From a virus: 12,827 nucleotides of DNA. Shown one piece after another: positions 1 to 12,827 of the stretch. Each line of letters starts with the position of its first letter. Within the stretch, counting starts at the first letter, position 1. The notes under the pieces were generated by a model. It made no database searches. It was not told where the DNA came from and saw only the letters and a list, made by a program, of their open reading frames with translations. The stretch lies in UHGV virus genome UHGV-0112014; one strand, written 5' to 3'. The position numbers and the translations under genes were made by a program.

Positions 1-1
1 C

Positions 2-1660
2 ATGAATAAGATTAGTTTTTCGGTAGGGCAGGCAGCTGGCGTTGCTGTAATGGCGGTAAATGCTGACGCTACCCTCACCAATACCAGCGGTGGCGCATCT
101 GTCTTTGCTGGGCTTGTAATATCGCGTCGTGGCGCACCGGGTAAAGTGCTGAAAGTTGACGATACGACTTATCAAAGCGTATTAGGTTCACCTATTCACC
201 CTCACCTGGGATCGGCATTTGAACCATACCGCCACGTGGAGCGTGCCGTAAAAGGTGGCTCTGGTTATGTCGTTCGTGTTTGCGCTAAAGACATGAAGGT
301 GCCGGGAATTTCTGTTTCCGTCGCGAGCAGAGCAAAAGCGGCAAAGGCCAACAAAACACTTACCGTGGAACCTGCTGAAACCACAGTAAATCCAGGTGAC
401 ACATTGAGCGTGGGTGTTGCTTCAACTGCAACGACACAATCAGTAACTTTCACACCAAAAGAAACTCCCCAGATTAAAGACGAAGGGAAGGCATTATTCT
501 TCATCAAAGATGGTGATGCATCTCAAAATCGCACGTTATCACTAACTCGCGATGATGAAGAAAGTGAACTCTTTACGCTGACGCTGAAAGAAAAACAAAC
601 CGATGGGTCTGTTGAGGTGCTGGAAAGCCACCAGGTGTCCTTCAATCCAGAAGGCACTAACGACATGGGCCAACCAGCATGGATTCCGACACTGCTTGAA
701 AGCCAGTCCACTCGCATTGGTGCCGTCCTGGCAGATAATGCGGAAGCATCTGCTGCTCAACTCATGTTTGAGGATGTGGCTTTTGAAGGCGGCACTGATG
801 GCGATTTGTCCACCATTGACACCGAAGACTATCTGGAAGCATTAAAGGTTCTCGAAGCCTCGGAGGTTAATTACACCGCATTACTGTCACTGGGCTGCTA
901 TGACGCATCCGCCTTAGCCGCGCTCAAAAATCTGGCAGAAGACGTTCGTGTAGACATGTTCTACGACCTGAAGGGCAACCAGACACCAGAAAATGCCATT
1001 TCAGAAGCTAAAAGCCATAGTTTTGGTGGCTCACACCAGCCAAGCCGCTACTACTTCCCATTCTCCTGCCGAGATACCTTCACCGGTATGAATGTTGTTT
1101 ACGGCATCAGTTGCGATGCATTCGTAGCAAAAGCAAGAGGGGTGGCTCTGGTATCGGATGTTGGCGGCTGGCATTACGCTCCGGCAGGTATATCACGCGC
1201 GATTATTGATCGACAGAATATTGCCCGAATTCCAAATATCGGTGCGGTTGATCGCGAAGCATTCGTTGTCGCACGCATTAACCCAGTTTCTGTTGCTGCT
1301 GATGGTTCTGTCTACATCGACGACTCTTTAACAACTTTCAGTAAAAACAACTACCTGCGATTCCAGCATGTTTCGTCTCTGATGAATGCTATTGCCCGTA
1401 ATTTCTATGAAGTAGCACTGGCGATTAAACATGAACCGGATGGCATTACCCAGGCGACGCTGATGAAAGCAATGACTGAATTGCTTGACCGTTACGTTGC
1501 ATCCGGTGCGCTGGTTACTCCCCGTGACAAGTCTCAGGGCGAAGATCCATATGTTGTCCAGGTTGTCCAGAAAGACATCGATCTGTGGGAAGTGTCCTGG
1601 TCTGTTTGCCCGACCGGTACAGCTCGCCGAATCGTCGGTAAACCAATTCTGATGCGCTGA
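2..1660 (+). CDS. Contractile tail sheath protein (552 aa) with a central Ig-like/Thr-rich insertion
   Basis: Intact ORF from ATG at nt 2 to TGA at 1658-1660. Because the ATG is at nt 2, a start upstream of the window cannot be excluded. The C-terminal half carries recalled sheath-family motifs (GGWHYAPAG, then ARINPVSVAADGSVYIDDSLTT, resembling the APAG and N.iR...vwGarT blocks). Residues about 100-230 (KTLTVEPAETTVNPGDTLSVGVASTATTQSVTFTPKET...) look like an inserted beta-rich domain. Confidence 0.85.
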   Translation: MNKISFSVGQAAGVAVMAVNADATLTNTSGGASVFAGLVISRRGAPGKVLKVDDTTYQSVLGSPIHPHLGSAFEPYRHVERAVKGGSGYVVRVCAKDMKVPGISVSVASRAKAAKANKTLTVEPAETTVNPGDTLSVGVASTATTQSVTFTPKETPQIKDEGKALFFIKDGDASQNRTLSLTRDDEESELFTLTLKEKQTDGSVEVLESHQVSFNPEGTNDMGQPAWIPTLLESQSTRIGAVLADNAEASAAQLMFEDVAFEGGTDGDLSTIDTEDYLEALKVLEASEVNYTALLSLGCYDASALAALKNLAEDVRVDMFYDLKGNQTPENAISEAKSHSFGGSHQPSRYYFPFSCRDTFTGMNVVYGISCDAFVAKARGVALVSDVGGWHYAPAGISRAIIDRQNIARIPNIGAVDREAFVVARINPVSVAADGSVYIDDSLTTFSKNNYLRFQHVSSLMNAIARNFYEVALAIKHEPDGITQATLMKAMTELLDRYVASGALVTPRDKSQGEDPYVVQVVQKDIDLWEVSWSVCPTGTARRIVGKPILMR

Positions 1661-1667
1661 TTTATTA

Positions 1668-1687
1668 CCCCCGCAGAAATGCGGGGG
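1668..1687. terminator. Perfect GC-rich stem-loop (CCCCCGC-AGAAAT-GCGGGGG) between sheath and next gene; possible attenuator or RNA-processing/stabilising hairpin
   Basis: 7-bp perfect inverted repeat with a 6-nt loop, read directly. There is no downstream U-tract on either strand, so it is not a canonical intrinsic terminator. Confidence 0.3.
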
Positions 1688-1701
1688 AGAGAGGTTTGAA
1701 A

Positions 1702-2427
1702 ATGAAAAATTATACTGCTGATCCTTTTATGCGTGCGATTTTTGGTTCTGGCTGCTTTGAAAGCGGTGATAAATCTACGCCGGGAAATGATGATAAAGCC
1801 ATGCTGGAAAGCGCCGAACAGAAAACTCAAACAAAGCCAAAAGAAGATATTGAAACCGCGATGATGGAAGCGGTTGAGTCTCGCGCACAAGGAGATATGC
1901 GCAGCCTGGCGGCTTCCATGCTTGCAGGCTGGATTGAAGATGGCGATCCAGAAGCTGACTCATTTGATGCGTTAGCAATCACTATGGCTGGCCTGGCTGA
2001 TATCGATGAAGACACCGATTTTACCGATGAACAAGTCGATGCTTATAACGATGCTCTTGCAGCCCTTGCAGATGCTGCTGTTGCGCTTGGCGCAGACCAG
2101 GACGACGTGACCGAGATGATCGACGATGAAGATGACTCTGCTGCCGAACGTGTATATGACGCGCTTTCCGAAAGCGACGCCGACATGATGGAAGCGGCTA
2201 TTGCCATTTACACCGTTGCTGGTGGTGACAGCGCAATGCTGGAAGCGGTACGTAAAAAAGTGGTCCGTGATGGCAAGGTTACCATTATCCGTAAGCGCCC
2301 GCGCCCTCGCCGCATGACATCATTGCAAAAACAGGCGCTGAAAAAAGCACGCCGCAAAGCGCATACATCCGTAGCAAATATCAACCGCAAAAAATCAATG
2401 CGCATTCGCAAAAAACGCGGTTTGTAA
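1702..2427 (+). CDS. Hypothetical protein with a strongly acidic Asp/Glu/Ala-rich N-terminal body (about 200 aa) and a strongly basic Arg/Lys-rich C-terminal tail (about 45 aa)
   Basis: ORF track gives 1696 (TTG); the ATG at 1702 is preferred because GAGAGG at 1688-1693 sits 8 nt upstream. TAA stop at 2425-2427. Composition is read from the translation (...DIDEDTDFTDEQVDAYNDALAALADAA... then RKRPRPRRMTSLQKQALKKARRKAHTSVANINRKKSMRIRKKRGL). No family recognised. Confidence 0.75.
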   Translation: MKNYTADPFMRAIFGSGCFESGDKSTPGNDDKAMLESAEQKTQTKPKEDIETAMMEAVESRAQGDMRSLAASMLAGWIEDGDPEADSFDALAITMAGLADIDEDTDFTDEQVDAYNDALAALADAAVALGADQDDVTEMIDDEDDSAAERVYDALSESDADMMEAAIAIYTVAGGDSAMLEAVRKKVVRDGKVTIIRKRPRPRRMTSLQKQALKKARRKAHTSVANINRKKSMRIRKKRGL

Positions 2428-2434
2428 GTGACAC

Positions 2435-2456
2435 AGGCCACCTGCAAAGGTGGCCT
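2435..2456. terminator. GC-rich stem-loop (AGGCCACC-TGCAAA-GGTGGCCT) after the acidic-protein gene; weak terminator or attenuator candidate
   Basis: 8-bp perfect inverted repeat with a 6-nt loop, followed by CTATCT (weakly T-rich). Confidence 0.3.
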
Positions 2457-2476
2457 CTATCTGGGAGGAATAGCGT

Positions 2477-3067
2477 TTGATTTGCGGCGCGATAATGCCT
2501 GATGGAATAAGTCCATTGATGAAGGTTTATATCCTCTCCCCTGAGGATATGGTCGTCGGTTATATCGGTGAAGGATCTACCGCAGAACTGTCTTCAATGT
2601 GGCAATCACCATTTGAAAACCAGTCAGTCGGGGGCTTGCTTGGCGGTATTAGCGCAGCGGCTGGCTCTCTCGCTGATACACTTCAGACCGCAACCGGCGT
2701 AACAACAAAGACCCTCTTTAACTCAATGCTTGTTTGGGAAGGTCAGCAACCGCCTGAATTTAATCTGGTTATTGACTTCATGGCGACAGTAAACGCGCAA
2801 CTTGAAGTGAACGCAGCCATTACAGCATTACTGAAGATGGAATCGCCGGAACTGAACAATGTAGCGCCATTCGGTCGCCGCCCGGAGACGGTAACGTTAA
2901 ACATAGGTAGAAACATAGCCCTTACCGACGTCGTTATCAAAAGCGTGAGTTACCAACTGGACGCTCCGCGCACACCGGAAGGCTATTTCACTCATAACAC
3001 GGTAACCCTGCAATGCAGCGGAAACACCTCTATTAACCGTAGCAATATCTCATCTGTTTTTGTGTAG
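2477..3067 (+). CDS. Tail structural protein, possibly tube-family or tube-initiator-like (196 aa)
   Basis: TTG start at 2477 with GGAGG at 2464-2468 (8-nt spacer); TAG stop at 3065-3067. Position between sheath and a gp19-like tube gene; beta-rich composition. Functional assignment is weak. Confidence 0.55.
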   Translation: MICGAIMPDGISPLMKVYILSPEDMVVGYIGEGSTAELSSMWQSPFENQSVGGLLGGISAAAGSLADTLQTATGVTTKTLFNSMLVWEGQQPPEFNLVIDFMATVNAQLEVNAAITALLKMESPELNNVAPFGRRPETVTLNIGRNIALTDVVIKSVSYQLDAPRTPEGYFTHNTVTLQCSGNTSINRSNISSVFV

Positions 3068-3075
3068 GAGTATTT

Positions 3076-3567
3076 ATGTCCGGTTTTGCAAATACAAAAT
3101 CCGATATGGCCTTTCTGAAATCCCGGTTTAATAAAAACCTGGCTGCGGGCGAAAAACTTATTGGCTCTGAATATTGGATGACCATTAAAGGTTATGAGCA
3201 TCTGTCTGTACTGGTTCGTACTGCTCAGTTACCAGAAATGACACGCGAAGATGTGGAAGATTACGCTCCTGGTGGCATGAAATTCAACCAGCACGGACCA
3301 TTACGCAACTCTGGTGAATTTCAGGTCACATGTGCGGAAACTATCGAGGGCGCAGTTCTCGCCGCTGTAAAACAAATGGTATACGGCAAAGAATATCTGG
3401 AAATTACCTTACAGGCAGCGGCTGAATCCAATAGCGGTAACCATAAAGGTCTGATCCGCACATATTCTCACTGCAAAGTGTATTCCGACGCCGTGGACTT
3501 CTCCTCCGAAGACGTAACGGCAGTCGTTAAGCCTTCCCTGCGCATTGTTTACAACTGGGCAGAATAA
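3076..3567 (+). CDS. Tail tube protein, T4 gp19-like family (163 aa)
   Basis: ATG at 3076 with AGGAG at 3066-3070. Same length as T4 gp19, and the layout (...TAQLPE...GEFQVTCAE... C-terminal ...YNWAE) resembles the recalled gp19 pattern (...TALPA...TVTV... ending YWE). Not verified by alignment. Confidence 0.6.
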   Translation: MSGFANTKSDMAFLKSRFNKNLAAGEKLIGSEYWMTIKGYEHLSVLVRTAQLPEMTREDVEDYAPGGMKFNQHGPLRNSGEFQVTCAETIEGAVLAAVKQMVYGKEYLEITLQAAAESNSGNHKGLIRTYSHCKVYSDAVDFSSEDVTAVVKPSLRIVYNWAE

Positions 3568-3574
3568 TCCCCGC

Positions 3575-3593
3575 TCCCGCCCTTGTGGCGGGA
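3575..3593. terminator. GC-rich stem-loop (TCCCGCC-CTTGT-GGCGGGA) after the tube gene
   Basis: 7-bp perfect inverted repeat with a 5-nt loop. Third intergenic hairpin of the same style in this operon. Confidence 0.3.
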
Positions 3594-3611
3594 ACTCCTT
3601 GCATTTGAGTT

Positions 3612-4172
3612 GTGGGTACGATGACACCAACCGAATTATTAGAAAGCGTTAAAGCACGATTTAATCCACTGCTTGTGCGTGAAGAAGAAACGCTGAAAGC
3701 CTTCCTGATCAAAGCACTGACAACGTATCAGGACAGGGCAGGGGTAGTGAAAACATTAAAACTTGAAAAAGATGGTGGCACGGCAATCCCATTGCCAGAA
3801 GATTATCTCTCTCTGGTCCATGTTACCGACAACAATGGCCTGCTGGTCTATTCGGATGAATTATCCGGCTTTATTGAATTAGAGCTAACAGGTGCAGAAC
3901 GCTGGCCTTTTCGGATGCTGTATCTGGTTAATCTACGCGACAGAAAGCTGGATGAATGGCAAGTGCCGCCAGCGATCATTGGGATGCTGGAGGAGTATCT
4001 GGAGGCGCTTATCAATGTCAGAAATGTCGCCCGGCAGCGGCGAGCGTCCATCGACGGAAAATTTGACTACTCCGATCTACCCGATGAAGCAACGCTATAT
4101 GCCCGCGTGCAGGAGATTGAGGAAAAAATGTCTTCAAACCGGGCAATCATTCCGGGGGCTACCATTTTTTAA
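3612..4172 (+). CDS. Hypothetical tail-module protein (186 aa)
   Basis: ORF with GTG at 3612 (alternative ATG at 3621), neither with a strong SD; TAA stop. Co-oriented and tightly packed within the tail cluster. No motif recognised. Confidence 0.55.
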   Translation: MGTMTPTELLESVKARFNPLLVREEETLKAFLIKALTTYQDRAGVVKTLKLEKDGGTAIPLPEDYLSLVHVTDNNGLLVYSDELSGFIELELTGAERWPFRMLYLVNLRDRKLDEWQVPPAIIGMLEEYLEALINVRNVARQRRASIDGKFDYSDLPDEATLYARVQEIEEKMSSNRAIIPGATIF

Positions 4173-4187
4173 CGCTGGAGGCGCAGA

Positions 4188-4895
4188 GTGAGTATTTTCA
4201 GCAGCGTTGGTAGAACGTTGACCACCGCATTGTCATTTAACACGAAATCATTCACCAGCAACCTCATTAGCGACATTCTTGATAAAGCCATATCAGGCGG
4301 CGGGGTAAGCGGGAATTACAGTAGCGATATTGCCTACGGGGAAAATATTGTTGCTGCCGCTATGCGTATCCGTTATGCCCAGGGATGGCAATGGACAGTT
4401 GAAGTGGATGGCCTGAACGGCTTCGATATGTTCGTGAAGGATATCACGTACAGCAGTGGAAACATCGAGACAGAAAGCAAGGTGATCGGCAGCGTAGAAT
4501 TCAGCAAGCCAACCTATGTTAGCGCCGGACCGGTCACTATGACCGTGAGGGATACCGAAGATGGCAAGATCATGGACTGGTTCAAAGAACGTCGTTCTCG
4601 CGTAACAAATCCGGACGGAACAATAAACCTTCCTCCTGAATATCTGATGAAAATCCGTCTCTACCGGGTAACTCAGGACGGCGGAAAAGAACTGGAAGAA
4701 GAAATGCGCGTATTTCCTACGCAACTTGGGGAGATCACACGCTCACGTGATCAGGTATCAGAGTTCTTGTCATACCCAATCACTTTCCAGAAATACACAT
4801 CCGCAGGCTCAGGTGTTTCTGCTTTGGTCAACGGTGCCGCAGGTATGGCCACAAGTGCGTTAAAGGGGGCTATCAGTGGAGTGATCAAATTCTGA
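4188..4895 (+). CDS. Hypothetical tail-module protein (235 aa) with a Gly/Ala-rich C-terminus
   Basis: GTG start at 4188 with GGAGG at 4177-4181 (6-nt spacer); TGA stop at 4893-4895. Last gene of the first + strand block. Confidence 0.6.
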   Translation: MSIFSSVGRTLTTALSFNTKSFTSNLISDILDKAISGGGVSGNYSSDIAYGENIVAAAMRIRYAQGWQWTVEVDGLNGFDMFVKDITYSSGNIETESKVIGSVEFSKPTYVSAGPVTMTVRDTEDGKIMDWFKERRSRVTNPDGTINLPPEYLMKIRLYRVTQDGGKELEEEMRVFPTQLGEITRSRDQVSEFLSYPITFQKYTSAGSGVSALVNGAAGMATSALKGAISGVIKF

Positions 4896-4985
4896 GATGC
4901 TTTAATTATGTGTGCTGGCGGGATGATCATTTCCCGTCAGCAACCACGCCCCCAACGATAGCGGGTAGGGAAGGAAGCGCAATTT

Positions 4986-5230
4986 TGAGGGCATTTTTTA
5001 CATCATCAATCCATCTGTAATGATGGCATTATTTACACATTCCAATGTAATCAATAAGTTAATCTAACAAACGATTAAGGAAAAAAGCAATAAGAATGCC
5101 AGACACACACGATATAGATTGAGGGTAATTTTTACATAACCTTTACCTATCAATATGTTACATAAAAACATAAACTGCAAACGACAAGATACATGCGATT
5201 TAGATGTAAAAATTGCCCTCAATTGCCCTT
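4986..5230. repeat. Iteron-like repeats downstream of rep (incC-like): direct copies at 4986-5004 and 5120-5137, inverted copy at 5205-5222 plus a partial at 5223-5230
   Basis: TGAGGGCATTTTTTACATC, TGAGGGTAATTTTTACAT and the reverse complement ATGTAAAAATTGCCCTCAA share the TGAGGG(C/T)AA core of the upstream iterons. 5113-5137 and 5197-5222 form a head-to-head pair flanking an AT-rich spacer. Confidence 0.55.
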
Positions 5231-5561
5231 AAGACTGTTGATAGGTAAATTTTATCCTGGCAACTTTGCCGCCTTCCGTCACTTCTGAGAAGACTATTTT
5301 CATTTTTGTATTTTTTTCAATCTCTGCTACAGCCTTCGTTAAAAAACTTCTCTTAAATTCAGCATACCGCTGGTAGCTTTTTGGCAGCCCGTAACGCTCC
5401 CGCATCCATTCAACGCCAAGTATAGCGAAGCCGCTCCCATCATCCTTTCTATACTGGCATAAGGACTCATAAAGCCGCATAGAATAAGGGTTTGTCAGGC
5501 GAGACACTTCAGTAAAATTCAGCCTCGTGAACCTCTTATCAAGCAGAGTAAAAAACGGCAT
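5229..5561 (-). pseudogene. repE: C-terminal fragment of the repE-like initiator (WH2/iteron-binding region) downstream of the amber codon
   Basis: Sub-feature of the pseudogene above. In frame with the N-terminal fragment, with no convincing independent SD before the ATG at 5559-5561. Confidence 0.55.
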
Positions 5562-5585
5562 GAGATATGGATTCAGATGAATAAT

Positions 5586-5984
5586 CTAAGTCCCCCGGCG
5601 TGGTGAGTAAGCCTCCTTAATCATCCAGGGATAAGACTCATAACTGTCTTCTGATTCGGTTGATTCATCAGGGTTATATATCGTGACTTTCTTCTCACTA
5701 AGTCCGGAGATAGCTTTACGAATATCCTTGCTGGCTTCAGCAGAGGGCAAATTATACATCTCTGCATATTCGTTGACCGTCAACTCACAGGCTCCTGAAC
5801 CAAGAACGCCATCCTTAGAAGCATAGCGAAGTCTTCCCACCACAATAAACAACAGTCGCTTTTGGTCGCGTGTCAGATGATAAGCCGCCTCTGTGATCTC
5901 ATTAGCCTGCGCCAAGCTACGGCTAATTGGTGTCGCTGATTCAATCAGACTGACGGCTTTTGCCGTTAATTCCGCTCTGTTCAT
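5586..5984 (-). CDS. repE: N-terminal fragment of the repE-like initiator (132 aa, WH1/dimerisation region), terminated by the amber codon
   Basis: Sub-feature of the pseudogene above. It has its own start and plausible SD, so a truncated product could be made. Confidence 0.6.
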   Translation of the reverse strand: MNRAELTAKAVSLIESATPISRSLAQANEITEAAYHLTRDQKRLLFIVVGRLRYASKDGVLGSGACELTVNEYAEMYNLPSAEASKDIRKAISGLSEKKVTIYNPDESTESEDSYESYPWMIKEAYSPRRGT

Positions 5985-6008
5985 AACCCTGTGTGATCCT
6001 TCAAATGG

Positions 6009-6130
6009 TGAGGGCAATTTTTACATCCCTTTGAGGGCAATTACTACACCTTTTGAGGGCAAATCTTACACCTACTGAGGGCAAATCTTACACCTTAATA
6101 GCTTAATTGAGGGCAAATCTTACACCTTGC
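6009..6130. repeat. Origin iteron array: five direct repeats of about 22 bp (consensus TGAGGGCAAATCTTACACCT) immediately upstream of rep
   Basis: TGAGGGCAA cores at 6009, 6032, 6054, 6076 and 6108, giving spacings of 23, 22, 22 and 32 bp (about two helical turns). The last three copies are near-identical. The core resembles recalled F ori2/incC iterons (...AATTGCCCTCA in the other orientation). Confidence 0.8.
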
Positions 6131-6164
6131 TCCTCTACAAGCCGCGCCACGCTTGGCCTCTGCG

Positions 6165-6230
6165 ATGCCTAAAAAGGATCTAAAAATGATTAAAAATGGA
6201 AAAAGATTTATAAAAATACTCTGTGGATAT
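6165..6230. promoter_or_regulatory. AT-rich tract (candidate DNA-unwinding element) followed by a DnaA-box-like site TGTGGATAT (6222-6230)
   Basis: AAAAAGGATCTAAAAATGATTAAAAATGGAAAAAGATTTATAAAAATACT, then TGTGGATAT, which is 8/9 to the reverse-complement DnaA-box consensus TGTGGATAA. Sits between the iteron array and an inverted iteron copy. Confidence 0.5.
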
Positions 6231-6247
6231 GTGAATAGCGTCACTTA

Positions 6248-6268
6248 AGGTGTAAAAATCACCCTCAA
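6248..6268. repeat. Single inverted iteron copy (AGGTGTAAAAATCACCCTCAA) on the far side of the DnaA box
   Basis: Reverse complement TTGAGGGTGATTTTTACACCT matches the iteron consensus apart from a C-to-T change within the conserved core and a few mismatches in the body. Confidence 0.5.
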
Positions 6269-6373
6269 TAGTTGCTGTTCGATCGACGAAATCATCACTC
6301 AATCCCCCCCTCCGAAATCACACACTCCCTATCCTCTGGAAAATGAACAGACACCTGCTTATCGGAGGAATAC

Positions 6374-7195
6374 TTGAACATTCCAAAATTCCCATTGCCT
6401 TCCCGTCCTGAGACAGAAATTCAGTTCCACGCCCCAACCGTGAAGGATGCGCTGAAATATTCTGACCTGAACCCGGCAGAAGATGAGGCAACTACTACAG
6501 AGTACCTTAACTCTATGCAGGATGGTGAAATTAACGACAGTGCTTACTGGACAGTCCAGGATCGCAGAACTGCCCTTTGGTGGATATTTGTTAACTCGCG
6601 CCCCGATGCAGTAATGACCTACTCCTATGAGTGCAGTCACTGCGGTAATACGCATCATGCAGATATAAACCTGAGCGATCTGGCTCAAACAGTAGAGATA
6701 CTCACTGTACCGCCTTACATAAAAACCAACGTACCGGTAAACGGCGTACCAACCAACTGGATACTTAAACCATTAACCGGAAAAGGCGCTGAACTCCTTG
6801 AGCGTATGCGGGCATCACTTCCTGATATGAAAAGCCCAGAATACAGTGCGGGCGTGGCACGTATGCGAATTGCAGAACTCGCTTTATGTACCGCGCTTGA
6901 AGACGATCCAGAAGACTTCACGCAAGCCGCCAATCGTCGCTTTGACATCATTGAAAGCATGGCGCTCGAAACGGAATTTACTCCGCTTGTTGCTCGCATA
7001 CAGCTTATGCAAAAAGACCTACGCCACGGCCTGAAAATGTCTATTGAGAGAGGCAAAAGCCGCCTGATCCTGCCTCCGCAACGCTGCAAAAACGCTAAGG
7101 AGGGTGCAGACGTGACTACCACGCTGTACGCCCCATTTCTCAATAGAGAGTTTATCCCATCAATTAGATCTGAATGGATGGCTAACCATTATTAA
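6374..7195 (+). CDS. Hypothetical protein (273 aa) opening the second + strand tail/baseplate block; contains a CSHCGNTHH Cys/His motif
   Basis: TTG start at 6374 with GGAGG at 6364-6368 (5-nt spacer); TAA stop at 7193-7195. No family recognised. A tail-assembly or baseplate role is inferred from position only. Confidence 0.55.
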   Translation: MNIPKFPLPSRPETEIQFHAPTVKDALKYSDLNPAEDEATTTEYLNSMQDGEINDSAYWTVQDRRTALWWIFVNSRPDAVMTYSYECSHCGNTHHADINLSDLAQTVEILTVPPYIKTNVPVNGVPTNWILKPLTGKGAELLERMRASLPDMKSPEYSAGVARMRIAELALCTALEDDPEDFTQAANRRFDIIESMALETEFTPLVARIQLMQKDLRHGLKMSIERGKSRLILPPQRCKNAKEGADVTTTLYAPFLNREFIPSIRSEWMANHY

Positions 7196-7249
7196 CAACC
7201 TGACTCTGTATGGATATCAGCCCGTTAGTGACGTTGAACAATTGCCACA

Positions 7250-10200
7250 ATGGCGAGCACTCCATATGTCAAAAGCCCTGGAAGAAAAATACAAAGCTCA
7301 AGCCGGGAAACGTTGATCGCCGCTGGCAAAAGAGAGGTTATTTTGAAAGAGAATAAAGACCGCATCGCAATAATTGACGCTATTCAGGGGGCGAGCGCAC
7401 ACGAACTTAAGGCTCTTGCTGAGATAAAAGACGCGATTCTTTCTGGTGGGGTCGCCATAACTCAACAGGGAGGACAACAAGGTAAAGTTAGCAACAGGCT
7501 ATCCCGTAGGCGTAAAGACTACGGGCAAAACGCACCTGAAGTCGTCAGAGACGCTCAAGCTAATCCATATAAAAAACGCCTTCCGGCGAAAAAGGAGAGG
7601 GCGCTAATAAACCAGGACATAGATCGCTCTATCGTTGCAACTAACACACCAGAAAGTGTTCATTCTGTGCGATCACGCCAGACCATCAAAAGGTCGAAAG
7701 GTTCTATACCGGTAGCAGCTAATTCTACCTCTCTGCAACCACAATCCCCCCAAAGCCCAAAAGGCCAACTGCGGGATAGTAACGGGCGCTTTGTATCCCA
7801 GAAAAATAATGAGGATATAGCCAGAAAAAAAGAATGGCAGAACGCACGTAAGGCCGACGCAAAACTACAAGAAGGCTTTCTCCGGAAGCTGGGTTCTGTT
7901 ATGGGGATGGATGGAAATCAGTCCACCAGTGAAGAGTCTTTAACAAATGCCGCAGGTGTTGGGGCTGGTGGTCCGCTATGGATGGCGGCGCGTGGCATGT
8001 ATGACATTGCAAAAGAGATCACAGGGAAAGCAAAATCACTTAAGGAGTGGGTAGATAATTCACCAGACACCAAAGCAAAATCGCCAGCGATCACTTACCC
8101 GGCTGTAGCCAATGCTCAAAAAACAACCTCCGCAACAGCATTTAATAATGCTGTTGAGACAAAATCCGCACAAGCAGTAGAAGAGCAAACAAAAATTCTT
8201 CAGACCAATGACAACAAAATAATTGATGGTCTGGAAAATGTCTCCGACGAAGTAGCTAAGCTACGTAAATCAGTATCTTCTGGGAATAAGTTCGGCTTGA
8301 GTGATCTCTGGAGAAATCGAGCAAGCAGAAGAAATAAAATCAATATTGGCGATCAGGCTGGTAAAAATAAACGGAGCAAACCGAAAAGGAAAGGTCGCAA
8401 TCTTGGGGGAAAAGCCCTTTCCGTTGGCGAAAAAGTCGCTGCCGGAACCGCTGCTGTTGGCGCTGGTGCCGGAGCTGCAAAGACTGTTAAAACAAAGGTT
8501 AGTAAAGCCAAAGACATCAGCACCACAAGCGACGTATCTAAGGGTATTGCTAAAGAAACAAAAAACACAGCAAAGGCAGTTAAGCCAGCAGGTGTTGTTG
8601 CCGAAGAGGCCACAATTAAAACAGGTGAGACTGTTTCAAAGAAAAAAACCGAATCTGTAGCCCTCAAAAGTGCTGCAAAAATAGGCGTTAAATCAGCTGC
8701 ATCTACAGCGGCAAGAGCTATCCCTATTATCGGGTCGTTGGCAATGGCTGGATATGACGCTATAGACGGTTACACAGATACAGATGCGCAAAAAGCGGCC
8801 TTTGGCTTAAGTGATGATGATATTGTATCCACACAGCAAAAAACCGCTTATGCAACAGCTAATGTGCTTGATATGGGCGGCTTAGTGTCGGGTGCAACCA
8901 ACCTAATAGGTAAAGGAATCTCTGCGTTAGGCTTCGAAAGGGCAGGTGAGAAACTTCAGAATTTTGATACCGAAGATATTGCTCGTGGTGTTAATGGTGC
9001 TGTAGATATCACTAAATCTGCTTTTGGTAGCCTCAAGGATACATTTTTATCCTCTGACGAGAGCACGAAGCAGGTAAAAAAAGCAGTTGAAGATGGCACA
9101 AAAAAGACTGTCGATGCGATTCATTCTTTAGGTGAGCAGCTACAAGGCGGGCGTGATGGTGAAGATGGTGTTGGTGAGCACGGGTATACTTCCCCGGCTG
9201 AATTTAATGCGCCTGCCAGCAATACCATTGCAGCGGATCTGAATATTGGCGGGAGCAACGCTAAAAACCGTAATTACCGGAATAATAATCTCGGCAACCT
9301 TGTTTTCGCTAATCAGGAAGGGGCGACACTGGAAGCGCCAAATGCAAAAGGTGAACAGCGTTTTGCTCGATTCAACACGCCTGAAGAAGGGATCAGGGCG
9401 CTGGCAAACCAGGTGTCAAGTTATTATAACGGCACCAGTGCCGCTGCTGGGTATCAGAAGTTACAGACGGTATCCAGTATTATTTCCAAATGGGCACCCC
9501 CAAAGGAGAACAATACTAATCAATATATCGATAACGTCAGCAAATATCTTGGTGTCTCGCCTAATGAAAAAATAGACGTCAGCAACCCGGAGGTTATGAC
9601 GCAATTAGTTCGTGCTATTGCGACGAAAGAAGGCGGAAACCCTGCGGTTAATAATGAGTTTATTAAGAATGCTCTTGGGGCGTTCAATGCAAATACCGGT
9701 CGTTGGGAGGGGCGCTTCTCCGATGAAACATTGGCGCGGCTTAATAAAATTCAGAAAGAGAATGGCGGTCAGCTAATTGCTCGTGATTCGCAATATAGCG
9801 TTGGTCGCAAGGTGAGATATGCTGATGGTACATCTCCGGCACAACCTGTATTGAATGCAGTCCCAACAGCAACACCTAAGCCAATTGAGGTTGCACAACA
9901 TGCCCAGGCAGCAAAAAAGCCACAAAAAACAGGTAACCGACCACAACCGATTATTCCAGAGAACGCTGATGTTAATACTGACTCGCCATCGAGTTTGCTT
10001 GAGCGGTTAATCGCCATAAATGAAAGCGGTATCAGTGGAGTAAGTGATTTATTTGGCGGCGCGGCTACCAGTCTTGCTGGAACAAGTCTGGACTTGGTGA
10101 AGGATTTTGCGTCGGATACTTCATTTGGTTCTATATCTTCGCTTTCAGAAAAGGCGAAGGGAATGGATCAGGCTCTGACTGAAAAAATATCCGGCTTAAC

Positions 10201-10990
10201 CGGAAAATCTTTTGGATTCAAAAAAGCACCACAGGTAGCTGATATCAGGGAGGCTATACAAAAAAGGCCGACACCTGAACGCGATATGTCTTCGGTCGAT
10301 CTTCTCTCTGACGCTTCACAGCCAACAGAGAATAAAAAAACACCTGTAAACTCAAAAGGGATTCCGGTCTATGACAATGGCAATAAGGTAATAGACGGCG
10401 AAGATAAGGGATTTCTTGGTTCTTTGTTTGATTCGTCATTAACAGGCATAAAGCGCATTGGTTCGGCTGTATTACCTGCAATTGGTGATAACGTTTCACA
10501 GCTTGTTGGTGGCATCGATGGCACTGGCATATTAAATGATTTTGTCTATCAGGCTACAGGGCAGAATTCAACAATCGCCAGGGCGATTAGCCCACTTACA
10601 AAAAGTGCTGGTGGTTGGCTAAATAATGGCATTCAACAAACTGCCGATAGCATCAAAGGAATATCAACTGAGGCAAATAACGCCATATTTGGCACTGCGT
10701 CAGCCGTGCAGGAACCTTTTCTTGCTATGCCGCCACAGCTTCCCACTGTAACCGATCTTGCTCGAAGCGGAATAAGACAACCATTAACTACTGACACTGC
10801 AAATAACGATCCTGCTATGTTGAAGGCGCTGGATAACGTCTGTTCTATCCTGAAAGACCTTCTGAATGTGAACAAAAATAACACAAAAGGCGATCCAGAT
10901 AAGGTTGTCAAAACATCGCAGCCGCAGCCGCGACCACGTGCGAGTACAACTATTAATGACCCGTCGCTGGATGCGCTGCTGGAGGATTAA
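7250..10990 (+). CDS. Tail tape-measure-like protein (1246 aa) with an embedded conserved globular domain (about aa 678-800)
   Basis: Long ORF directly upstream of gp25-like and J-like baseplate genes. It has a basic low-complexity N-terminus, Ala/Gly/Lys-rich central segments with hydrophobic stretches (AIPIIGSLAMAGYDAIDG), and a compact domain (NNLGNLVFANQEG...FARFNTPEEGIRALANQ...KWAPPKENNTNQYIDNV...ATKEGG). No SD precedes the ATG at 7250, so the exact start is uncertain. Confidence 0.65.
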   Translation: MASTPYVKSPGRKIQSSSRETLIAAGKREVILKENKDRIAIIDAIQGASAHELKALAEIKDAILSGGVAITQQGGQQGKVSNRLSRRRKDYGQNAPEVVRDAQANPYKKRLPAKKERALINQDIDRSIVATNTPESVHSVRSRQTIKRSKGSIPVAANSTSLQPQSPQSPKGQLRDSNGRFVSQKNNEDIARKKEWQNARKADAKLQEGFLRKLGSVMGMDGNQSTSEESLTNAAGVGAGGPLWMAARGMYDIAKEITGKAKSLKEWVDNSPDTKAKSPAITYPAVANAQKTTSATAFNNAVETKSAQAVEEQTKILQTNDNKIIDGLENVSDEVAKLRKSVSSGNKFGLSDLWRNRASRRNKINIGDQAGKNKRSKPKRKGRNLGGKALSVGEKVAAGTAAVGAGAGAAKTVKTKVSKAKDISTTSDVSKGIAKETKNTAKAVKPAGVVAEEATIKTGETVSKKKTESVALKSAAKIGVKSAASTAARAIPIIGSLAMAGYDAIDGYTDTDAQKAAFGLSDDDIVSTQQKTAYATANVLDMGGLVSGATNLIGKGISALGFERAGEKLQNFDTEDIARGVNGAVDITKSAFGSLKDTFLSSDESTKQVKKAVEDGTKKTVDAIHSLGEQLQGGRDGEDGVGEHGYTSPAEFNAPASNTIAADLNIGGSNAKNRNYRNNNLGNLVFANQEGATLEAPNAKGEQRFARFNTPEEGIRALANQVSSYYNGTSAAAGYQKLQTVSSIISKWAPPKENNTNQYIDNVSKYLGVSPNEKIDVSNPEVMTQLVRAIATKEGGNPAVNNEFIKNALGAFNANTGRWEGRFSDETLARLNKIQKENGGQLIARDSQYSVGRKVRYADGTSPAQPVLNAVPTATPKPIEVAQHAQAAKKPQKTGNRPQPIIPENADVNTDSPSSLLERLIAINESGISGVSDLFGGAATSLAGTSLDLVKDFASDTSFGSISSLSEKAKGMDQALTEKISGLTGKSFGFKKAPQVADIREAIQKRPTPERDMSSVDLLSDASQPTENKKTPVNSKGIPVYDNGNKVIDGEDKGFLGSLFDSSLTGIKRIGSAVLPAIGDNVSQLVGGIDGTGILNDFVYQATGQNSTIARAISPLTKSAGGWLNNGIQQTADSIKGISTEANNAIFGTASAVQEPFLAMPPQLPTVTDLARSGIRQPLTTDTANNDPAMLKALDNVCSILKDLLNVNKNNTKGDPDKVVKTSQPQPRPRASTTINDPSLDALLED

Positions 10991-10995
10991 TACTG

Positions 10996-11370
10996 ATGCT
11001 TTACGAAATAGACGCAAGACTTCAAACGAACGAAAGCGGTGTCATTATTGCAGAGGGAAATACAGCAGCCTGGATGGCTCGCCTTGACGAGTGGTTACGA
11101 ACCCCGGAAGGAAGCGTTTATGGGTTACCGTCCTGGGGAAATCCAATGGAAGAATTTAAGCATGAACCATTCGGCTCTGAAACTTCGCACATAGTCGAAG
11201 TGGCTATTGAAGGGAGAATGATGACAAAACTACGACAAGATCTACCTGGTTTAGATGTGCAGGGAATTCGCTGTACATCCATTTCTGAAGATTCTTTATT
11301 AATTAGTTTTTATGCGAAAGGTGGAAGCATGGATATTGTTATGCAGAAATCAAGCGGGGTGGGCGCGTGA
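10996..11370 (+). CDS. Baseplate wedge protein, gp25/gpW (GPW_gp25) family (124 aa)
   Basis: ATG at 10996 with GGAGGA at 10981-10986. Size and motif pattern (LDEWLRTPEGSVYGLPSWGNPMEEFKHEPFG...LLISFYAKG) fit the recalled gp25/gpW signature (L.T..GeR...P.fG...l.i.i.Y). Confidence 0.7.
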   Translation: MLYEIDARLQTNESGVIIAEGNTAAWMARLDEWLRTPEGSVYGLPSWGNPMEEFKHEPFGSETSHIVEVAIEGRMMTKLRQDLPGLDVQGIRCTSISEDSLLISFYAKGGSMDIVMQKSSGVGA

Positions 11371-12797
11371 CCATTACAGAATTACTGGACAAATTTAACG
11401 CCAAGCTAAATGAAAATACATGGTGGTCACGATTTGTAAACAGTCAGTTTGTGCAGATGCACGCTGTGTTCGGAGCACAGCTTATTTATATTGCTCGTAC
11501 ATTTGCAAGTCGTGGTCTTACTGAGGGGCTTATTTCAACAGCTACGCGCCGGTCAAGTATTTTGGCGGTTGCTGAAGACCGTGGCTACGTGGGACGATTT
11601 GTTAGTGCTTCATACGGAACAACGTCGATAACCAATAAAACTGATCGGGATATTACGTTACCAGCCGGGGCAGAATTGCTTGCTAGCGACCAAACTCCTT
11701 TAGCAATTATTAACAGTGTGGTTGTTCCTGCTGGGAAAACTGTTTCTGGTGTAGAAGTCAAACAGCACGAAGCCGTAAGCGTTACATTTGATATTGAAAA
11801 GGAAACGCTATTCCTGACGTTGTTGCTTTCCAGAGAATTAACAAAAGAAGTCTCTAGCCTTGATGTTTATGTTATTACAAATGGTGTAGAAAAAAAATGG
11901 GTCTACAACCCATTATTTCGAATGTCCAGAGACAAAAGTAAGCACTATTCATTGGCATATAAGCCAACTGAACAACTTGGCGTTAAATTTGGTGACGGCT
12001 CTATGGGTATGATGCCGCCAGCAGGTTGTCAGGTTAGAATTGATGTTATGGCTAGCCTTGGCGACTATACTTTGGCTGAAGGACAAAAGTTAGAACCAGC
12101 TGGAAATATTGCCCAATACATAGAGTCTTTGGAGTTTAAAACCGATTCGATCATTACTGGCGGCGGTGGCATGGAAACAACAGAAGAAACCCGAAATCGC
12201 GCACAGTATTATGTTGCATATGATGAACAAGTCGTATGGGGCGGTGATTACCGTCAATTCATCCAGAACGTGGTACACGGTACGTCATGGCTGAACGTTT
12301 GGGGTGAAGCGTTACAAGAAAAAATAACAGGATTTGATGTGCGTAACATCAATAAGATTTTCTTTTGTGGACATAAGCCGGGCGTAAGCCAGGAGCAACT
12401 TAAGTCAGAAATACTTAAAGCCCTGGAGAATGTTCCAAATGAACTGAACAAGCGGTTCGAGTATGTAGATACAAATGAACAGCCTTTTACGATAAATTTT
12501 ACTGGTATTGCACGTAAAAGTGTTCTGATAGACGATGCTAAAAATGCCATTAAAGCCGCGTTGGAAGATAATTTTGGGCGTGATTCGTCCTCGTTCAGTT
12601 TATTGCTACAGAGTGATGATGATTCCCAGCAATGCTATGCGCAGGTAAAAGTCAAAGATATTTGGCGCGTAATAGAATCGTTGGATATGTTTCTCTCTTA
12701 TGACATAAAAATACAAAATATGAAGGATGCTGTTTACTTTAATGACTTTATTTATCTTGACGTAAAATCTTCTACTTTCAGCATTTCTTATCCGTAA
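11367..12797 (+). CDS. Baseplate J-like protein (gpJ/gp6 family, 476 aa)
   Basis: GTG start at 11367 overlaps the upstream TGA (GTGA, 4-bp overlap). The W-then-J order is as in P2-type baseplate modules. N-terminal region (ILAVAEDRGYVGRFVSASYG...ITLPAGAELLASDQTPLAIINSVVVPAGKTV) resembles the recalled Baseplate_J pattern. Confidence 0.65.
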   Translation: MTITELLDKFNAKLNENTWWSRFVNSQFVQMHAVFGAQLIYIARTFASRGLTEGLISTATRRSSILAVAEDRGYVGRFVSASYGTTSITNKTDRDITLPAGAELLASDQTPLAIINSVVVPAGKTVSGVEVKQHEAVSVTFDIEKETLFLTLLLSRELTKEVSSLDVYVITNGVEKKWVYNPLFRMSRDKSKHYSLAYKPTEQLGVKFGDGSMGMMPPAGCQVRIDVMASLGDYTLAEGQKLEPAGNIAQYIESLEFKTDSIITGGGGMETTEETRNRAQYYVAYDEQVVWGGDYRQFIQNVVHGTSWLNVWGEALQEKITGFDVRNINKIFFCGHKPGVSQEQLKSEILKALENVPNELNKRFEYVDTNEQPFTINFTGIARKSVLIDDAKNAIKAALEDNFGRDSSSFSLLLQSDDDSQQCYAQVKVKDIWRVIESLDMFLSYDIKIQNMKDAVYFNDFIYLDVKSSTFSISYP

Positions 12798-12807
12798 TGA
12801 GGTTGAC

Positions 12808-12827
12808 ATGAAAGATAATTGGCTTAA
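12808..12827 (+). CDS. 5' end of the next co-oriented gene (MKDNWL...), truncated by the window edge; probably another baseplate or tail-fibre component
   Basis: ATG at 12808 with GAGG at 12799-12802 (5-nt spacer), 10 nt after the J-like stop. Only 6 codons are visible. Confidence 0.4.

Follow-up and report, generated by a model that had tools for sequence, protein, structure and literature searches.

A short metagenome contig carries what is almost certainly the tail-baseplate module of a D6-like, P1-related phage-plasmid

Introduction

What kind of contractile machine is encoded by the virus sequence UHGV-0112014, a stretch of 12,827 nucleotides that we refer to as a whole as the window, and is it part of a phage at all? 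All contractile injection systems have counterparts of its sheath and tube proteins, of its tape measure and of its gp25-like and gp6/J-like proteins, and a first-pass annotation of the bare sequence left three machines side by side: a phage tail, a tailocin and an extracellular contractile injection system (eCIS). As no head genes were visible, a plasmid-encoded injection system was regarded there as a real alternative to a phage-plasmid, with an acidic/basic protein and a domain inside the tape measure as possible cargo. We find that the window almost certainly belongs to a temperate myophage that is D6-like and related to P1, with a circular plasmid of ~90 kb as its prophage, and that it constitutes the tail-baseplate module of this phage. 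A gene set that was ambiguous among the three kinds of machine is thereby placed in the described D6/P1 phage-plasmid family, and it fails the tests for an eCIS and for a tailocin, which closes the ambiguity. That such tail genes occur on D6/P1 phage-plasmids is already known. Worth passing on besides are three results that we treat below: a protease-type motif in the homologue of P1 gp21, the exchange of a domain within the tape measure Sit, and a lone amber codon in the plasmid replication gene rep.

The window is a whole contig that closely matches phage D6 and a family of plasmids

A look-up of exact proteins identified the window as a complete metagenome contig (ENA ERZ1309120, NODE_1072_length_12827_cov_2.694096), assembled at ~2.7x coverage. 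It breaks 1 base ahead of the ATG of the sheath gene at its 5′ end and 30 bases past the bplA stop at its 3′ end, and the low coverage is an adequate explanation for both ends. Capsid and other head genes, packaging genes and lysis genes are missing because the window is a contig fragment that ends at assembly breaks. For genome scans in general the lesson is to check first whether a short sequence is a whole contig, and only then to interpret the neighbours that it lacks.

By megablast, the genome of phage D6 (MF356679 / NC_050154) covers 100% of the window at 90.6% identity, and the order of 11 genes, from D6 orf48 to orf38, is identical in the two. D6 is an isolated phage, discovered via mitomycin C induction and propagated on E. 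coli C600. The same search returned 125 plasmid records that match the window, the best of them being the E. coli plasmid pPSS-10_3 (NZ_AP027688.1, 90.5 kb), which is 98.8% identical over 100% of the window. When 5,426 complete E. coli genomes were scanned, all of the 122 matching places, from 105 genomes, were on plasmids and none was chromosomal. The gene order of the window is shared by D6 and the D6-like phage-plasmids (pPSS-10_3, pYU39_89), including a block between tub and pmgB that consists of a Rep_3 gene and iterons. Compared with D6, the window diverges by ~9% at the nucleotide level, has the amber codon in rep and lacks 48 bp that hold two iteron copies.

The ten open reading frames (ORFs) for structural proteins are all intact, lie on the plus strand and run in the same direction, with a gap at 4896-6373 that houses a gene on the minus strand. 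A tRNA scan of the window found none.

Head genes adjoin the tail module in near-identical sequences

The surroundings of the module can be read from a second metagenome contig (L004, 24.2 kb), which matches positions 1-11652 of the window at 99.9% identity, the differences being a single base and a stretch of Ns at a scaffold gap. At a distance of 490 bp upstream of the sheath gene, L004 carries a gene whose 550-aa product shares 97% identity with the D6 major capsid protein and matches the P1 capsid protein Gp23 in the PDB (E = 1e-161). The full records of D6 and pPSS-10_3 contain the portal, the prohead protease Pro, DarA, Hdf, DdrA, DdrB and DarB, and the PacA/PacB terminase, and they further encode a holin, an endolysin, RepL, Cre, Phd/Doc, ParM/StbB and an invertible tail-fibre segment. 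With L004, pPSS-10_3 and D6 as proxies, the replicon that bears the tail module also holds the genes for the capsid, portal, protease and terminase and those for lysis. It had been proposed that adjacent portal, major capsid and terminase genes in a standard phage order would speak against an injection system; in substance this is what the relatives contain, with the capsid gene directly adjacent and the head genes in the scattered order of P1 instead of a standard one. The statement that no head genes are visible holds for the capsid gene, which is indeed not in the window, but not for the portal adaptor PmgC or for the gp21 homologue with its capsid-maturation motifs, and the contig is truncated.

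Between the capsid and sheath genes, L004 has an ORF (8919-9197 of that contig) for a 92-aa protein with a Big_2 immunoglobulin (Ig)-like domain. This ORF is typical of D6-like elements and P1 is without it, genes 23 and 22 of P1 being ~60 bp apart. The D6-like protein may decorate the capsid or the tail.

Tail, tube, baseplate and neck proteins

The features of the window are collected in Table 1. Structural assignments are based on PHROGs and on the PDB chains of P1 and not on Pfam; the PDB matches come from phmmer searches of the window proteins against PDB sequences, and the roles in P1 were taken from the P1 papers. Pfam was nearly blank on the ten structural proteins and gave only sub-threshold hints (T4_baseplate for PmgB, at 23.7 bits under a cutoff of 24.5 bits, Gp6-like for BplA and SU10_adaptor for PmgC). 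Seven of the proteins match chains of the P1 virion solved by cryo-electron microscopy (cryo-EM), namely Gp22, BplB, Tub, PmgG, PmgA, BplA and PmgC. P1 (PDB 8jaj, 8jan, 9ay2-9ay5, 9vzk, 9ums) has one-to-one homologues of gp22, gp21, PmgG, BplB, PmgC, Tub, PmgB, Sit, PmgA and BplA, for which the same roles are expected, and there the genes are split into two operons, 23-22-21-pmgG-bplB and pmgC-tub-pmgB-sit-pmgA-bplA-16.

Table 1. Genes, domains and sequence elements in the window, in the order of their positions
Feature	Position	Strand	Size	Evidence and details
Sheath, homologue of P1 gp22 and D6 orf48	2..1660	+	552 aa	phrog_1036 E = 2e-194; PDB 8jaj Gp22 E = 1.5e-121
P1 gp21 homologue	1702..2427	+	241 aa	P1 gp21, 42% identity, E = 2e-9 (tblastn); phrog_1053
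AM[LM]E|[SA] motifs in the gp21 homologue	1798-1812, 1858-1872, 2233-2247
PmgG homologue, T4 gp48-like tube-baseplate linker ring, tube fold	2477..3067	+		PDB 9ay5_G E = 1.4e-39
BplB homologue, major tail tube protein	3076..3567	+		PDB 8jan E = 4.5e-56; phrog_1120
PmgC homologue, dodecameric head-to-tail adaptor	3621..4172	+		PDB 9ums E = 9.5e-51, residues 1-186
Tub homologue, tube-fold protein of the initiator ring that sits between the tube and PmgG	4188..4895	+		PDB 9ay5_A E = 5.7e-46
Iterons downstream of rep	4985..5223			4985-5005, 5119-5139, inverted copy 5203-5223 (repeat search, core scan)
Rep_3-family replication initiator (rep)	5229..5984	-	251 codons	Pfam Rep3_N in one half, Rep3_C in the other
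Origin region	6008..6269			Five tandem 21-22-bp iterons at 6008-6127, core TGAGGGCAA; AT-rich stretch ~6165-6220; inverted iteron 6249-6269
DnaA-box-like site	6222-6230	-		ATATCCACA, 8/9 matches
PmgB homologue, tail morphogenesis	6374..7195	+		phrog_1854 E = 8e-134
Sit homologue, tail tape measure	7250..10990	+	1246 aa	phrog_7182; alternative called start 7343
PHA02564 / Enc34-endolysin-type peptidoglycan hydrolase domain, predicted	9260..9649	+	Sit residues 671-800	PDB 7q47 E = 4.7e-18
PmgA homologue, T4 gp25-like inner baseplate wedge	10996..11370	+		PDB 9ay5_M E = 3.3e-17
BplA homologue, T4 gp6 / P2 J-like baseplate wedge	11367..12797	+		PDB 9ay5_Y E = 1.9e-108; phrog_1369 and phrog_219

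The sheath, tape measure, gp25-like and J-like genes recognized by the first-pass annotation are all there on the plus strand, as judged by PHROGs, the P1 chains and homology to P1 Sit, and homologues of BplA carry the annotation baseplate J/gp47 family. The two tube-fold candidates are real tube-fold proteins as well, but their number is three (BplB, Tub and PmgG).

By homology to the solved P1 virions, rings of PmgG and Tub would be seated on the baseplate hub, BplB would polymerise on these rings into a tube that encloses the Sit tape measure, and Gp22 would form the contractile sheath around it. In P1, BplB builds 53 hexameric rings and is the actual tube (PMC10304247). The wedges that trigger contraction would consist of PmgA, BplA and gp16, the gene for the latter being expected just past the contig end. 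PmgB is essential in P1 yet absent from virions, and it is probably an assembly factor that acts outside the virion, as a chaperone of the tape measure or the hub. The finished tail would then be coupled by PmgC to the portal of a DNA-filled head. P1 PmgC binds the portal clip (PMC12810830), and a pmgC knockout produces tails plus incomplete heads (PMC9024508). The presence of a portal adaptor separates a phage tail from a headless machine, which would need none, and we suggest that genome scans should seek such an adaptor amid "tail" genes, as it discriminates between the two.

The tape measure Sit carries a cell-wall hydrolase domain that differs between lineages

Sit, and not gp6, is now taken as the tape measure of P1 (PMC9024508; PMC12810830), an assignment made by argument and from low-resolution density in the tube lumen, without an atomic model (PMC9024508, PMC12810830). 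The N-terminal half of Sit in the window is 28% identical to P1 Sit across 593 aa (E = 1e-37), and its position and size also fit. It is 1246 aa long, and the coordinates of the coding sequences give lengths of 1260 aa for the D6 protein and 1265 aa for that of pPSS-10_3.

Within Sit, residues 671-800 align with the endolysin catalytic domain of Hafnia phage Enc34 (PDB 7q47). The Enc34 enzyme belongs to the PHA02564 family, is muralytic by experiment and is probably an N-acetylglucosaminidase (PMC8943055). Going by this alignment, residues 671-800 are a cell-wall hydrolase domain. P1 Sit has an SLT domain, with which the internal domain of the window protein gave no alignment, nor did it match SLT in Pfam, and the P1-derived name "transglycosylase" is probably inexact for D6-like Sit. 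In more distant relatives other hydrolases stand at this position of Sit, namely an SLT domain in L015 and a VgrG3-like_C domain in L008 and L010. As the domain differs among P1-like lineages, it points to a swappable module for opening the cell wall and not to cargo, and the cargo-like character that the first-pass annotation had considered for it gives way to an Enc34-type hydrolase. Upon infection, the Sit hydrolase domain would open the cell wall locally.

Weighing the phage-plasmid against headless and defective elements

Some points weigh against a D6-like phage-plasmid as the source of the window. The context of the contig is drawn from near-identical sequences and not from its own flanks. 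Taken at face value, the amber codon in rep would deprive this copy of its plasmid maintenance, barring an error at 2.7x coverage or an amber-suppressing host. That the exact variant in the window would produce D6-like virions is likewise extrapolated from its relatives.

A rival possibility is that the window stems from a defective or tailocin-like derivative of a D6-like plasmid, one that has lost a head/packaging or a replication function and yields only tails or nothing. D6-like variants with defects do exist, such as p75 with its 15-kb deletion (PMC6799933), and the window combines the premature stop in rep with an end just short of the position of the capsid gene. However, the p75 deletion takes out tail genes and not head genes (PMC6799933). 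L004, of identical sequence, continues from the capsid gene directly into the sheath gene, all ten structural ORFs are intact, and the coverage of 2.7x accounts for the contig ends. A tailocin in the stricter sense, which would be a headless tail cluster with lysis genes of its own and usually chromosomal, is further opposed by the absence of chromosomal copies from the 5,426 E. coli genomes and by the adjacent head genes in relatives. We consider a defective element of this kind very unlikely, and favor the D6-like phage-plasmid. A 36-kb plasmid record, NZ_CP027382, was considered as a tail-only derivative and rejected, because the assembly is linear and incomplete and ends with a partial portal gene.

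The eCIS and the R-type tailocins share their contractile core with the window, and eCIS also carry genes for an AAA+ ATPase and for payloads. Both lack a capsid, portal, terminase and portal adaptor, whereas the window has the adaptor and the replicon of its relatives has the head genes. A headless, plasmid-encoded eCIS of the Afp/PVC type that delivers protein cargo, for which the shared core and a 12.8-kb window without a capsid gene could speak, is so improbable that we set it aside: it is refuted by proxy through the capsid, portal, protease and terminase genes on near-identical replicons and is at odds with PmgC in the window itself, no window ORF has an Afp15/Pvc15-type AAA+ ATPase or a toxin domain by Pfam and PHROGs, the "AAA family ATPase" of pPSS-10_3 is only a 213-aa ParA-like protein beside which there are otherwise addiction modules, and the domain within Sit is of the cell-wall hydrolase type. 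The evidence that refutes the eCIS and the tailocin is of the sort that the first-pass annotation had proposed to look for, and the phage tail on a phage-plasmid, which was also among the initial proposals, proved right through the identity with D6 and pPSS-10_3 and the head genes on the relatives' replicons.

The gp21 homologue as a candidate substrate of the prohead protease

The acidic/basic protein that had been considered as cargo is a homologue of P1 gp21. Its leader at the N-terminus is followed by an acidic helical core (net charge -34) and then by a C-terminal part of 60 aa that is basic (net +24), and its family is confined to P1/D6-like elements of Enterobacterales, mainly on contigs of 80-95 kb. 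Three motifs of the type AM[LM]E|[SA], with the vertical bar marking the known or predicted cleavage point, are found in it: KAMLE|SA (residues 33-37), TAMME|AV (53-57) and SAMLE|AV (178-182). The P1 capsid protein is cleaved between E120 and S121, at the sequence KAMLE|SVA, to which GKAMFE|SVA corresponds in the D6-like capsid protein. Among the 103 proteins of pPSS-10_3 the pattern AM[LFM]E[SA] occurs 8 times against ~0.1 expected, and only four proteins have it: the major capsid protein (at the counterpart of P1 E120|S121), DarA (residues 62-66), Pro (three times) and gp21 (three times). The DarA hit falls where P1 DarA loses ~69 residues. The motif is less stereotyped in P1 than in D6-like elements.

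The glutamates of the first and last gp21 sites (E36 and E181, as numbered in the 241-aa form) are at least 90% conserved in an alignment of 25 sequences that extends down to 36% identity, and in the eight lineages that were compared the gp21 sites track the local capsid site; L009, for example, has GLIFE|SV against LMFE|SV, and L010 has GMVLE|AA in both the capsid protein and gp21. In an AlphaFold2 (AF2) model of gp21 with a predicted local distance difference test (pLDDT) score of 75, the sites at 33-37 and 178-182 are in low-confidence segments and the one at 53-57 is in a predicted helix. We read the low-confidence segments, with the caution due to a model, as possible exposed linkers at the borders of an acidic helical bundle and of a basic unit at the C-terminus. 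A search of the PDB and BFVD with this model gave no meaningful match, be it to a tube, baseplate, toxin or known scaffold fold.

From the motifs, it seems somewhat probable that Pro cleaves gp21, which would hence be a protein internal to the head, and the acidic/basic protein would best be read in this way and not as an eCIS payload. Several observations count against it. Gene 21 of P1 is traditionally labelled "baseplate or tail tube" and is essential by CRISPR interference (CRISPRi), gp21 is undetected in the virion proteome of P1, the fold searches came up empty, and the cleavage of gp21 is a prediction.

Alternatively, gp21 could be a factor for tail or baseplate assembly, that is, a tail chaperone, whose MLE[SA] motifs have no connection with proteolysis. 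The old label, the place of the gene within the sheath-tube operon and the absence of gp21 from the virion proteome would all agree with this, and tail chaperones are typically acidic. We regard the chaperone as possible and rather doubtful, given that the capsid protein, DarA and Pro are the only other proteins of pPSS-10_3 with the motif, and that the motif co-varies with the capsid maturation site across lineages. In addition, the historical phenotype would fit the downstream genes pmgG and bplB of the same operon, and tryptic peptides of gp21 should be hard to detect, as its sequence has a K/R-free stretch of 83 aa and a K/R-dense C-terminal part.

If gp21 is a Pro substrate, as we lean towards, it would be packaged into the prohead, where Pro would cut at AM(L/M)E|(S/A) and release the C-terminal part, which is basic and conserved, from the acidic core. 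The 60 residues of this basic part would come off at AMLE|A, and might then remain with the DNA or attach to the inside of the capsid. The P1 literature has not identified a separate scaffold protein. We would give an even chance to the proposal that "baseplate or tail tube" is a misannotation and that gp21, as a head-internal Pro substrate, could be the scaffold or core protein that P1-like phages reportedly lack. In having short Glu-ended motifs of the cleavage type, which equal the capsid maturation site and lie at domain boundaries of an acidic helical protein whose basic C-terminus is conserved, gp21 is like the substrates of T4-type prohead proteases and the herpesvirus scaffold. The relevant comparators are the scaffold core and internal proteins of T4-type phages, and the herpesvirus scaffold with a capsid-binding C-terminal tail that is removed by the maturation protease. 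No sequence or fold similarity between gp21 and known scaffold or internal proteins was found.

The old label and the CRISPRi essentiality could both stem from polarity on pmgG and bplB, which lie downstream in the same operon. Our literature search found no paper that assigns gp21 a role as protease substrate or head protein, and we present this reading as new. If true, it would add a candidate protease-processed head protein to a model phage that is said to lack a separate scaffold, and the label of gene 21, which is 40 years old, may properly apply to an adjacent gene.

Two further observations concern the motif and the gp21 family. The P1 portal Prt (L011 12751-14460) has the sequence AQILE|SV near its C-terminus, at residues ~552-560, which falls within residues 534-569, a segment not visible in the map from cryo-EM; it is a possibility that the C-terminus of the portal is also trimmed by Pro. 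A gp21-like gene was also found on a 216-kb contig (L016 5001-5690, ENA ERZ21831104), together with an ORF of 456 aa and amid IS110, IS91 and integrase genes. As the rest of the tail module is missing there, this locus seems to be what is left of a P1-like element that has decayed.

The plasmid replicon within the tail operon

The plasmid character noted in the first-pass annotation is real, as the window encodes a Rep_3 initiator flanked by 21-bp iterons (Table 1). The block of rep and iterons (4896-6373) sits between tub and pmgB and is transcribed against the tail genes. In P1 and five more distant relatives tub adjoins pmgB and the block is absent, which suggests that the D6-like lineage gained it by insertion into the tail operon. 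The plasmid replicon of P1 (repA) is located elsewhere and not between tub and pmgB. The Rep_3 replicon would maintain the prophage as a plasmid, and the iterons downstream of rep resemble a copy-control array.

Promoter searches added little here. A model of P1-type late promoters (Lpa box plus -10, LP23 model) gave 4 matches in the window against 3.4 expected, and sigma-70-like sites were fewer than in shuffles; both outcomes are uninformative, and a convincing promoter for pmgB-sit-pmgA-bplA was not found.

Codon 133 of rep is an in-frame TAG in the window (5586-5588), where the alignment has TAC (Tyr) in D6, pPSS-10_3 and L004. This amber codon would cut Rep to 132 of its 251 residues, it is the sole true base difference between the window and L004 across 11.65 kb, and the allele is absent from the plasmid records of PLSDB. 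At 2.7x coverage a sequencing error could account for it, as could a real variant that is defective in replication.

Right after the rep stop, at ~5228, a segment of 48 bp (alignment columns 1178-1225) is missing from both the window and L004. D6 and pPSS-10_3 retain this segment, which holds two iteron-like copies, and its loss might have altered the control of copy number.

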